Source: Candidatus Bathyarchaeota archaeon
GTDB taxonomy: Archaea > Thermoproteota > CALKCG01 > B24 > DRYS01
Length of the DNA stretch: 64,000 nucleotides
Direction of reading: 5' to 3'
Assembly: GCA_018396535.1 (NCBI GenBank)
Contig: JAGTQC010000003.1
Coordinates: forward strand, 112,052-176,051
The position numbers were made by a program, and so were the translations under genes. Shown piece by piece: positions 7,115-9,182 of this stretch; the stretch's first letter is position 1, and every line of letters begins with the position of its first letter. A model generated the notes under the pieces. It saw only the letters and a program-made list of their open reading frames with translations, made no database searches and was not told where the DNA came from.

Positions 7115-8920
7115 TTACTCCTCCTCGATAGTAGCGGCTGTATAGTAGTATTCACCCATCTCCTTCTGTATCCTATCCAGTCTCGAACCCTCCTTATTAG
7201 CTCTAGGCCTATACGTTTGTCTATCCCTTCTAAACGTTACTCCAAGCTCCTTGAGGAACATATTCATACCACTCCTCATATCCATAGGCTGATGCCCGTA
7301 ACCATCGACTCCAGGTATACCTGAGAATACCATAAGCCTATCAGCTATGAAATCTTGGACTAGTATATCATGCTCGACGACGAAGGCAACCCTACCGAGA
7401 TTTTCTACGATCCTACGAACAGCTCTAGCCATAGCTAACCTCTCCTCTACATCTAGATATGCGCTAGGCTCATCGAGTAGGTATATATCAGCATCCATGG
7501 ATAAACATATAGCTATAGCTAGCTTCTGAAGCTCACCGCCGCTTAGATCTGATACCCTCCTATCTAAGATCTTATCCAATCTGAAGGGTCTATATATCTC
7601 CTCTCTGAAGAAGCTGGACTCCATCCTATCGCCTAGAGTCTTCCTCAATAATACTTCTACAACCCCATCGTAATCCCCGGATATATACTGAGGCTTATAA
7701 CTAACCTTAACTCCACCTGGTAGGGCATCCCCCTCGTCAGGCTTCTCCAACCCGGCTAGAAGCTTAACGAACGTAGTCTTACCGATACCATTCGGTCCTA
7801 GTATACCTATAACCTCGCCTCTACGTATGAATCCAGGTTCAACTCTCAGAGTGAATCCTCCAAGCTTCTTAACCATGAAGCCCCAGCTATACTCTATATC
7901 GATAGACTCAGCTACCTGGGTAGGTGGTTTAACCTGGAATCTTATAGGTTGACTCCTAAACCTTACATTATCGCTTGGAATATATCCTTCGAGAAACATG
8001 TTTATCCCATCTCTAACAGCTCTAGGATAGGATACTATACCGTATACACCTGGATCACCATATAGAACCGATATCATATCAGACATGTAATCCAATACTA
8101 TCAGATCATGCTCAGCTACGACTACCATAACATCCTGTTTAGCTAGCCATCTGATAACCCTAGCTACCTTAATCCTCTGACGTACATCTAGATAGCTTGA
8201 AGGCTCGTCGAATATGTATACATCAGCATCTCTACATACAACCGCTGCTATAGCAACCCTCTGTAGCTCTCCACCGCTAAGTACATCCACCCTTCTATCG
8301 ATAACTTCTCTAAGCTCTAGGATCGATACGATATAATCCATAACGCCCCGCTCATCTAGCTTAGATAGGAGTCTACTAGCTTCGCCCTTAAACACTCTAG
8401 GTATAGCATCTATATACTGAGGCTTATACGCTACTCTAAGATTACCCGAGGCGAGTTTAGCGAAGTAGTCTTTAAGAGATGTACCTCCGAAGTACTCTAT
8501 TATACTATCCCAGTCTGGCGGATCACCCTCCACTACTCCTAGGTTAGGTTTAAGCTTACCTGCAAGTATACGGAGGGATGTAGATTTACCTACACCATTC
8601 TTACCTACTAGACCTAGTACGGTAGATCTAGCTGGTATAGGTAGTCTGAATAGTTTAAACCCGTTAACACCATATCTATGGATACATTCACCTTCAAGCT
8701 CTCCTGGAAGATTAACTATCGATATAGCTTTAAACGGGCATTTATTAACACAGATACCGCATCCTATGCATAGCTCCTCAGATATTATAGGCTTACCCTT
8801 ATCATCCACCTTGATAACTTCGATCTTATTCCTAACGAGTGGGCATAGACGTCTGCATAGTAGTCCACAATCTTCTACACGGCAGCTATCTCTATCTATT
8901 ACAGCAATCCTGTTAGTCAT
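7115..8920 (-). CDS. rli1: Ribosome recycling ATPase ABCE1 (RNase L inhibitor/Rli1)
   Basis: N-terminal 2x[4Fe-4S] (C..CGLLC..LCP, CIGCGICVNKCP), two ABC domains with LSGGELQ; ATG at 8920 after AGGTG. Confidence 0.97.
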   Translation of the reverse strand: MTNRIAVIDRDSCRVEDCGLLCRRLCPLVRNKIEVIKVDDKGKPIISEELCIGCGICVNKCPFKAISIVNLPGELEGECIHRYGVNGFKLFRLPIPARSTVLGLVGKNGVGKSTSLRILAGKLKPNLGVVEGDPPDWDSIIEYFGGTSLKDYFAKLASGNLRVAYKPQYIDAIPRVFKGEASRLLSKLDERGVMDYIVSILELREVIDRRVDVLSGGELQRVAIAAVVCRDADVYIFDEPSSYLDVRQRIKVARVIRWLAKQDVMVVVAEHDLIVLDYMSDMISVLYGDPGVYGIVSYPRAVRDGINMFLEGYIPSDNVRFRSQPIRFQVKPPTQVAESIDIEYSWGFMVKKLGGFTLRVEPGFIRRGEVIGILGPNGIGKTTFVKLLAGLEKPDEGDALPGGVKVSYKPQYISGDYDGVVEVLLRKTLGDRMESSFFREEIYRPFRLDKILDRRVSDLSGGELQKLAIAICLSMDADIYLLDEPSAYLDVEERLAMARAVRRIVENLGRVAFVVEHDILVQDFIADRLMVFSGIPGVDGYGHQPMDMRSGMNMFLKELGVTFRRDRQTYRPRANKEGSRLDRIQKEMGEYYYTAATIEEE

Positions 8921-8959: not shown

Positions 8960-9010
8960 GTGGAAAGGGGAAAAAAGGTAACGGAAGGAGTGGAAGGTTG
9001 GGGGGCTAAG
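8960..9010 (-). terminator. Pyrimidine-rich/oligo-U terminator-like tract after the poly-Glu/Trp ORF
   Basis: Minus strand reads CCTTCCACTCCTTCCGTTACCTTTTTTCCCCTTTCC directly after the peptide stop. Confidence 0.5.
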
Positions 9011-9118
9011 CTACCACTCCTCCTCTTCCTCTTCCTCCCACTCTTCCTCCTCCCACTCCTCTTCCTCCCATTCCTCCTCCCATTCTTCCTCCTCTTCCTC
9101 CTCTTCGAATCTGAACAT
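9011..9118 (-). CDS. Unannotated 35-aa acidic micropeptide MFRFEEEEEEEEWEEEWEEEEWEEEEWEEEEEEEW
   Basis: ATG at 9118, TAG at 9011-9013; GGAGGTG SD 7 nt upstream; BRE-TATA at 9169-9182; mixed synonymous GAA/GAG codons all in one frame. Confidence 0.75.
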   Translation of the reverse strand: MFRFEEEEEEEEWEEEWEEEEWEEEEWEEEEEEEW

Positions 9119-9168
9119 GATCTAACACCTCCCCCTTAGCGGGGCTAAAGAAGCATCCCCACCGCTAG

Positions 9169-9182
9169 TTTAAAAACTTTTT
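9169..9182 (-). promoter_or_regulatory. BRE-TATA promoter of the micropeptide gene
   Basis: Minus strand AAAAAG-TTTTTAAA, about 50 nt upstream of ATG 9118. Confidence 0.65.

Follow-up and report, generated by a model that had tools for sequence, protein, structure and literature searches.

An unannotated glutamate- and tryptophan-rich micropeptide gene upstream of ABCE1 in Thermoproteota

Can a short reading frame made up largely of Glu and Trp codons be a gene, and if so, what might its product do next to the gene for the ribosome-recycling ATPase ABCE1? The question is raised by a 64,000-nt stretch of DNA from a Candidatus Bathyarchaeota archaeon (assembly GCA_018396535.1, contig JAGTQC010000003.1, positions 112,052 to 176,051 of the forward strand; hereafter the window), in which an original prediction had placed a hidden Glu/Trp micropeptide with a complete expression cassette immediately upstream of ABCE1. 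The minus-strand frame is present as described: at 9011..9118 (-), 35 codons followed by TAG encode the peptide MFRF-E8-W-E3-W-E4-W-E4-W-E7-W, in which Glu occurs 26 times and Trp 5 times. The 1.41-Mb genome (41% GC) has no other Glu/Trp-rich open reading frame (ORF). ABCE1 ranks with the most conserved and essential proteins that archaea and eukaryotes have, and ribosome recycling in archaea is considered to require no more than aRF1 or aPelota together with ABCE1. A micro-gene that looks strongly expressed and is kept beside ABCE1 throughout the phylum in the Thaumarchaeota-Aigarchaeota-Crenarchaeota-Korarchaeota (TACK) archaea points to an unrecognized player.

Coding status and expression signals of the micro-gene

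The closest public relatives of the locus are hot-spring metagenome-assembled genomes (MAGs) of Bathyarchaeia, with ABCE1 86-87% identical. The peptide does not differ between three species of the genus: the 18 columns at which their ORFs vary all fall on the third position of a codon (GAA/GAG), every change is synonymous and no indels are present. The chance of all 18 variable columns falling on one codon position is P ∼3e-9 against a uniform expectation. The trailer in the same congeners has 66 variable columns out of 104 as well as indels, and the flanks have diverged. Read in the antisense Leu/Phe/Pro frame, every one of the 18 changes would be a Leu/Phe replacement. The stop codon varies among the three congeners (TAG, TAA or TGA). 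In five species of Pyrobaculum, where the gene is unlinked to ABCE1, 14 of the 16 variable columns are third positions and there is one amino-acid change, with flanks nearly saturated with differences. Because GAA and GAG are freely chosen and the stops differ, the constraint must lie on the peptide and not on the RNA. An RNA-level "anti-Shine-Dalgarno sponge" of GGAGG repeats was ruled out by the same free choice and by the exclusive use of GAA in AT-rich lineages.

An untranslated purine-rich microsatellite or RNA element, open in one frame by chance, is extremely improbable: Tandem Repeats Finder did score the tract as imperfect repeats (period 9-24) and sequence-similarity searches returned no hits, as would be expected of such a tract, but the changes are confined to third positions without indels, the free GAA/GAG choice rules out a conserved RNA sequence, and the frame, start and Trp-stop are kept in more than 100 genomes of wide GC content and codon choice. 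We concluded from the pattern of substitution that the 35-codon frame is a genuine unannotated protein-coding gene under protein-level selection and not a microsatellite, as the original prediction had argued from GAA/GAG variation at third positions and from the spaced TGG codons. The micro-gene is almost certainly a real translated gene, and we infer that translation takes place in vivo.

The predicted expression cassette was also borne out, and its parts recur in orthologues (see below). A Shine-Dalgarno (SD) motif GGAGGTG can be read at 9126..9132 (-), separated by a 7-nt spacer from the ATG at 9118..9116. Farther upstream, at 9169..9182 (-), a promoter-like element can be read in which a purine-rich AAAAAG, resembling a B recognition element (BRE), stands directly before the TATA-like TTTTTAAA (9176..9169, -). 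This BRE/TATA-like element is identical in the three congeners, and the DNA beyond it has diverged. The 5' leader (9119-9165, -), ∼45 nt from TATA box to ATG, is nearly unchanged across the three congeners; a search for a hairpin in this 5' untranslated region that could occlude the SD gave a fold no better than shuffled sequences (z -0.2). On the other side, 35 nt after the stop, a T6 run at 8971..8976 (-) is a candidate archaeal terminator. Going by these signals, the micro-gene has its own promoter and ribosome-binding site and probably its own terminator. A scan of the locus for sigma-70 promoters and hairpin terminators found nothing, the scan being bacterial and not applicable to archaea.

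Between the stop and the T6 run lies a pyrimidine-rich trailer (8977..9010, -) whose bases could pair with those of the purine-rich ORF 3' end. The fold of 8960..9060 reached -42.2 kcal/mol against -35.8 ± 3.5 for shuffles (z -1.8), and across 116 loci the pairing of ORF 3' end and trailer was not stronger than with control trailers (P 0.10). The trailer pairing is probably not a conserved element, and we rejected an attenuator built on this CU-rich stretch and the ORF 3' end, the pairing being of modest strength in the window and not shared family-wide.

ABCE1, the syntenic partner, occupies 7115..8920 (-). Its ATG at 8920, aligned with the starts in relatives, lies 90 nt past the micro-gene stop, which agrees with the location originally given. 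The protein has the N-terminal 2x[4Fe-4S] domain and two ABC domains, and it matches the archaeal ABCE1 structures 3bk7/3j15 at E ∼1e-208 and human ABCE1 and yeast Rli1 at E ∼1e-183 to 1e-180. The upstream neighbor of the micro-gene in the window encodes a 2-hydroxyacid dehydrogenase.

Occurrence in Thermoproteota and linkage to ABCE1

Frame-preserving conservation in relatives, one of the points by which the original prediction was to be judged, was found. When ABCE1 served as the anchor in 30 relatives, an acidic small ORF turned up just upstream in 18 loci, which cover the order and several further families, and all 18 end in Trp-stop although no Trp criterion had been applied. The signature (Glu)4-Trp-stop occurs in 153 of 400 sampled genomes of the phylum, mostly once each, compared with ∼14 hits for a reversed control pattern. 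Its distribution follows families: 23/23, 21/25 and 13/16 genomes were positive in three of them and 0/57, 0/24, 0/17 and 0/17 in others. We take the 23/23 family to be Thermoproteaceae and the 13/16 family to be Desulfurococcaceae. A (Glu)5-Trp-stop scan covered 185,579 species genomes, and the figures that follow refer to the matches listed: at least 44 small-ORF loci are found among L101-L220, and all 31 titled small-ORF hits in L101-L180 belong to Thermoproteota in the GTDB sense. The listed carriers include Bathyarchaeia, Thermofilales, Desulfurococcales, Sulfolobales, Thermoproteales, Methanomethylicia and "Nitrososphaerota" MAGs, and the listed bacterial and Thermococcus matches are C-termini of larger proteins.

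The 106 distinct peptides collected have a median length of 30 aa (18-64), a composition of 66% Glu, 14% Trp and 2.7% Asp, and a median net charge of -20. In the median peptide the first acidic run begins behind three residues and the longest run is 6 residues long (15 at most), aromatic residues are most often spaced 5-6 residues apart, and 78% of the peptides carry a bulky hydrophobic residue at positions 2-5. Internal aromatic positions vary among Trp, Phe and Leu across orthologues. The sole invariant residue is the terminal Trp, with Glu before it (penultimate Glu is found in all collected orthologues, partly by construction for those found by pattern); the residue third from the end is Glu except in two loci, where it is Asp. 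The product, as predicted from these sequences, is an intrinsically disordered polyanion of ∼20-60 residues. It opens with a short bulky or aromatic stretch, continues in runs of 3-8 Glu interrupted by Trp (at times by Phe), and closes with a C-terminal Glu-Glu-Trp that has a free carboxylate.

A TATA-like box and an SD precede nearly every orthologue: in nearly all of them a TTTAAA/TTTATA box is placed 25-60 nt ahead of the start, and GGAGGTG/GAGGTG lies 5-9 nt before the start in most. Pyrobaculum and Thermoproteus have a TATA box ∼25 nt before the ATG instead of an SD, a leaderless-type layout. A T-run 15-40 nt past the stop recurs in most orthologous gaps.

Tails of the same kind were seen on larger proteins. 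LysW-like Zn-ribbon proteins of 95-112 aa (PF21344, E 3.5e-7; FYDLN_acid) carry a long E/W tail ending in Trp, where LysW has its carrier Glu, at L086:3021-3308 (-) (the same as L126, with L198 related; Methanomethylicia) and at L116, L156 and L183 (Anaerolineae); the PF21344 match is found only in the 95-aa Methanomethylicia protein of L086. Four Thermococcus MAG loci (L121, L159, L162 and L213) encode a ∼190-aa protein ending LIEEEEEW-stop, the C-terminal part of which reads like TATA-binding protein. In the Pyrobaculum-type genome G046 (1,826,402 bp) the tail is present in three copies, L063:3047-3397 (-), L064 (∼2580-2933, +) and L065, namely a free micropeptide and two proteins of 116-125 aa in which a Cys-containing N-terminal part without a Pfam or NCBIfam family is followed by an E/W/F tail.

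Among 118 distinct loci, ABCE1 lies at most 400 nt downstream on the same strand in 52 and farther downstream, behind an inserted gene, in 7; the micro-gene is divergent from ABCE1 in 11, and 9 loci are uninformative. The 30 loci listed for the pattern alone are the subset with the least bias, and 26 of them contain ABCE1. The two genes are only 30-50 nt apart in what is probably the family Sulfolobaceae. In the gaps before ABCE1 there is usually a T-run shortly past the micro-gene stop and, 25-45 nt ahead of the ABCE1 start, a TATA-like box; since that box is present in most gaps, the micro-gene and ABCE1 probably have separate promoters. Conservation across the phylum, the invariant C-terminal Trp and a linkage to ABCE1 that persists through inversion are results that go beyond the original prediction.

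Other neighbors were noted at some loci. A Zn-ribbon protein of 92-108 aa is encoded between the micro-gene and ABCE1, or heads a divergent ABCE1 operon, in Desulfurococcales and one other family (L100:2656-2931 (-), L077:3249-3572 (+) and 20 further loci). A Zn ribbon of the RPB9/TFS type forms its N-terminal part, its middle is rich in Lys, and its C-terminus is acidic with a DYY.VFLE motif; it scored below the cut-offs of TFS and TFS4 and matched no family of its own, and it may be a third member of the ABCE1 neighborhood. In Pyrobaculum and Thermoproteus (L061:2430-2816 (-), L071 and L072) the micro-gene lies ∼200 nt upstream, on the same strand, of S-adenosylmethionine (AdoMet) decarboxylase (PF02675), and is divergent from a 200-aa ORF without a known family that is followed by an aconitase-family gene.

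The family appears to have escaped the usual searches. Five members had no match in Pfam or NCBIfam, even with E allowed up to 10. Word-seeded phmmer scored 0 of 1557 candidates, and an exhaustive hmmsearch with a 30-sequence profile gave 0 hits; these blanks are probably weak, because the composition-bias correction probably blinds HMMER to such sequences. A feature search of the ESM Atlas returned neighbors only at chance level (≤0.80), and 10 orthologues are absent from a 15-billion-protein collection. Literature on the motif, on acidic microproteins near ABCE1 and on crenarchaeal small proteins yielded no description of the family. The gene was called hidden in the original prediction; this is true of family databases and of the 10 absent orthologues, but the ESM Atlas holds the window peptide letter for letter as a predicted protein. 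Standard gene callers miss this conserved gene in well-studied genomes, among them complete genomes that are presumably those of Pyrobaculum, Thermoproteus and Staphylothermus type strains.

Possible roles of the micropeptide

The linkage to ABCE1 survives inversion, the micro-gene has independent expression signals, and selection on the peptide is undiminished where the gene is unlinked; these three observations argue for a trans-acting product tied to ABCE1. The terminal Trp after Glu is the sole invariant and internal aromatics tolerate Trp, Phe or Leu, which suggests the anatomy of an aromatic-tipped acidic docking tail. A functional tie of the peptide to ABCE1 or to translation is likely, and our tentative first choice is a free, trans-acting polyanionic docking peptide in the ABCE1 pathway. 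Such a peptide would act in trans as a free-standing acidic tail with an aromatic tip: its Glu runs would bind a cationic surface and its terminal Trp-carboxylate would plug a pocket, the target would be ABCE1 itself (e.g., its basic iron-sulfur (Fe-S) domain) or the site on the ribosome where ABCE1 works, and the recycling factor would be tuned or escorted. The specific docking model, with Glu runs on a cationic surface and the Trp-carboxylate in a pocket, is doubtful in its particulars. By analogy with nascent acidic chains elsewhere, the aromatic N-terminus and the periodic Trp may serve to keep poly-Glu translatable, even if the product acts in trans.

Several points weigh against a docking peptide. 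Its expression and binding are proposals made from the sequence; a peptide so simple may have many cationic partners, and the synteny may reflect co-regulation rather than contact. No ABCE1 lies within the fetched DNA in 39 of the 118 loci, and the neighbors at these loci are of many kinds: in Thermoproteaceae AdoMet decarboxylase, and in other lineages aEF2 in convergent orientation, a PhoU-like protein, a proteasome subunit and a tRNA-binding protein. Comparison of ABCE1 residues and charge (Lys/Arg columns) with the presence of the peptide gave no convincing signal; the net charge of the Fe-S domain was +4.2 with the peptide present and +1.7 with it absent, a difference based on n=6 in the absent group and confounded by phylogeny. 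Finally, the act of translation and not its product could be the function, given the known abortion of translation by N-proximal poly-acidic sequences (PMC9718836; 10.1101/2021.02.02.429294). In a Rosetta-stone test, no ABCE1 was found to end in acidic-Trp in lineages with or without the peptide. A co-folding prediction with ABCE1 and the peptide supplied as alignments returned a score of 0.00, which is no answer and counts as evidence neither way.

In the cis-acting alternative, the main rival, which we nevertheless consider unlikely, the ORF is a leader or sensor whose N-proximal poly-Glu chain destabilizes the translating ribosome (intrinsic ribosome destabilization, IRD). Completion of the ORF would set read-through of the T-run or re-initiation into ABCE1, and the level of the splitting factor would be coupled to ribosome stability or to recycling capacity at the ORF stop. 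Nascent chains that are poly-acidic near the N-terminus cause translation to abort in bacteria and eukaryotes, and IRD is counteracted by chain length and by bulky residues at the tunnel entrance (PMC9718836; 10.1101/2021.02.02.429294). A cis-acting sensor is attractive because the ORF carries such a sequence in extreme form beside the gene for the ribosome-splitting ATPase. The window peptide resembles a textbook IRD inducer, with an acidic run from codon 5 and a whole chain that fits the exit tunnel; the relief that bulky residues bring close to the tunnel entrance would account for the periodic Trp and for the N-terminus being aromatic (10.1101/2021.02.02.429294; PMC9718836), and bacterial ABC-F ATPases are able to relieve IRD (PMC11162784). 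The 52 loci with ABCE1 close downstream on the same strand and a T-run between, and the ability of the window ORF 3' end to pair with the CU-rich trailer ahead of T6, also fit a leader. However, the 11 divergent and 39 unlinked loci keep promoter, SD and a peptide under purifying selection, and ABCE1 probably has its own promoter, as judged by the TATA-like box in most gaps. The hairpin is not conserved across the family (the z of -1.8 applies only to the window), and IRD does not require an invariant terminal Trp. We know of no archaeal leader-peptide attenuator that could serve as a precedent, which also counts against a cis-acting leader.

A generic polyanion unrelated to ABCE1 is likewise improbable. 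The micropeptide would protect basic proteins as a heat-stable chaperone or shield, imitate nucleic acid, or buffer polyamines or Mg2+, with Glu supplying charge and Trp cation-pi contacts, and the synteny with ABCE1 would be a frozen accident of an ancient neighborhood. The extreme composition and low information content of the peptide are consistent with this, as are the E/W tails ending in Trp on domains of other kinds (one like TBP in Thermococcus, and in Methanomethylicia and Anaerolineae a LysW-like Zn ribbon), the position of AdoMet decarboxylase, an enzyme of polyamine synthesis, ∼200 nt downstream in Thermoproteaceae, and the mostly thermophile lineages among the named carriers. On the other hand, the linkage to ABCE1 is kept across families and rearrangements more than expected of a neutral neighborhood, and the strict terminal Trp and single copy suggest a specific partner. 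The nucleic-acid mimic, chaperone for basic proteins and metal chelator put forward in the original prediction are conceivable roles, and no result spoke specifically for any of them. A modified-peptide precursor, another role raised in the original prediction, was not upheld: neighbors other than ABCE1 vary by lineage, and no recurrent modifying enzyme (radical SAM, ATP-grasp or protease) was found beside the gene in the lineages examined.

There is only a slim chance that the micropeptide is an Fe-S delivery tag, an archaeal analogue of the C-terminal targeting signal of Lto1. Its Glu-Trp-carboxylate would dock on a DUF59/Cia2-like assembly protein and its Glu runs would hold the basic apo Fe-S domain of ABCE1. 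At that same slim chance, the micropeptide would be the archaeal counterpart, possibly the forerunner, of the Lto1 "acidic-Trp-COO-" signal, a free tag escorting apo-ABCE1 to a DUF59/Cia2-type protein, and client recognition by a terminal Trp would predate eukaryotes and have served ABCE1 first. Eukaryotic ABCE1 depends on an adaptor of its own, which binds the cytosolic iron-sulfur assembly (CIA) targeting complex through a conserved C-terminal Trp (PMC4523923); Lto1 is part of this Yae1-Lto1 adaptor, which serves only Rli1/ABCE1 (PMC4523923; PMC10245660). The CIA targeting signal is [LIM]-[DES]-[WF]-COO- (PMC10245660), and its aromatic side chain and terminal carboxylate together supply most of the energy of binding, the pocket being formed mainly by Cia2 (10.64898/2026.04.06.716496). 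The archaeal peptides end in Glu-Trp-COO-, and the genome has one stand-alone DUF59 protein, but DUF59 is near-universal (13 of 14 control genomes) and so is little informative. Cia1 and Met18 are eukaryotic, which also counts against a delivery tag, the antepenultimate residue is Glu instead of aliphatic, and the multiple internal Trp and the unlinked loci are left unexplained. Archaeal orthologues of CIA clients have moreover been reported without the tripeptide (PMC10245660). A Yae1_N search found no Yae1/Lto1-type domain in the genome of the window. The sole Yae1_N (deca-GX3) match, at contig C7:53897-54010 (L227:1354-2784, +), exceeds the cut-off, and none of 14 control genomes has a match; it falls in the GYxxGY-repeat linker of a membrane-anchored solute-binding protein and was rejected as a look-alike and not a homologue.

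Whether as a docking peptide or in one of the other roles, the micropeptide might modulate the splitting of ribosomes, escort the oxygen-sensitive Fe-S domain or sense ribosome stability, and it would represent an extreme natural case of N-terminal poly-acidic translation. Genetically tractable species exist in Sulfolobaceae, a probable carrier family, and the peptide is easy to synthesize.

Comparison with known systems

MgtL-type IRD leader peptides are also encoded by very short ORFs with acidic residues right after the start, upstream of a ribosome- or cation-homeostasis gene, and acidic clustering right after the start is typical of the micropeptide family. Unlike MgtL, the micro-gene has its own promoter, SD and T-run and is kept when divergent from or unlinked to ABCE1, and the micropeptide is much longer, with an invariant C-terminal Trp and without conserved alternative RNA structures.

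The C-terminal tail of aP1, the stalk protein in archaea (P1/P2 in eukaryotes), is likewise a flexible Glu-rich segment with a hydrophobic or aromatic tip, and by binding to nucleotide-binding domain 1 (NBD1) it activates the ATPase of ABCE1 (PMC6125642). At its tip aP1 has an L..LF helix, and the aP1 of this genome ends LEGLAALFG after a mixed Lys/Glu spacer, whereas the micropeptide is free, contains no Lys, ends in E7-W, and has neither an L..LF/LFG motif nor the Ribosomal_60s stalk (dimerization) domain. The CIA targeting complex recognition (TCR) tripeptide shares with it an acidic residue followed by a C-terminal Trp with free carboxylate, and in eukaryotes it is used by the adaptor of ABCE1/Rli1. 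The C-terminal Trp is found in all 18 anchored ORFs and the penultimate Glu is present, but the antepenultimate residue is Glu (Asp in two loci) where the tripeptide has Leu, Ile or Met; the deca-GX3 domain is lacking, and the poly-Glu/Trp body has no counterpart. The Cia1-Cia2-Met18 receptor complex is not known from archaea. The micropeptide belongs to neither the aP1 tails nor the Lto1-type CIA signals.

LysW and related amino-group carriers are small and very acidic, with Trp in an acidic C-terminal tail. LysW ends EDWGE, its terminal Glu being the carrier residue; the window peptide ends in Trp and has no Zn-ribbon domain (no Pfam match) and no lysX/lysZ-type neighbors. DSS1/Sem1, a small free acidic disordered protein of eukaryotes, binds basic grooves on several complexes and can mimic single-stranded DNA. 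The micropeptide has a simpler composition and no match to Pfam DSS1_SEM1 at E up to 10, and we know of no link between DSS1 and ABCE1. What the micropeptide and DSS1/Sem1 have in common is that both are tiny, free-standing, acidic and disordered, the micropeptide by prediction, with Trp set within acidic runs.

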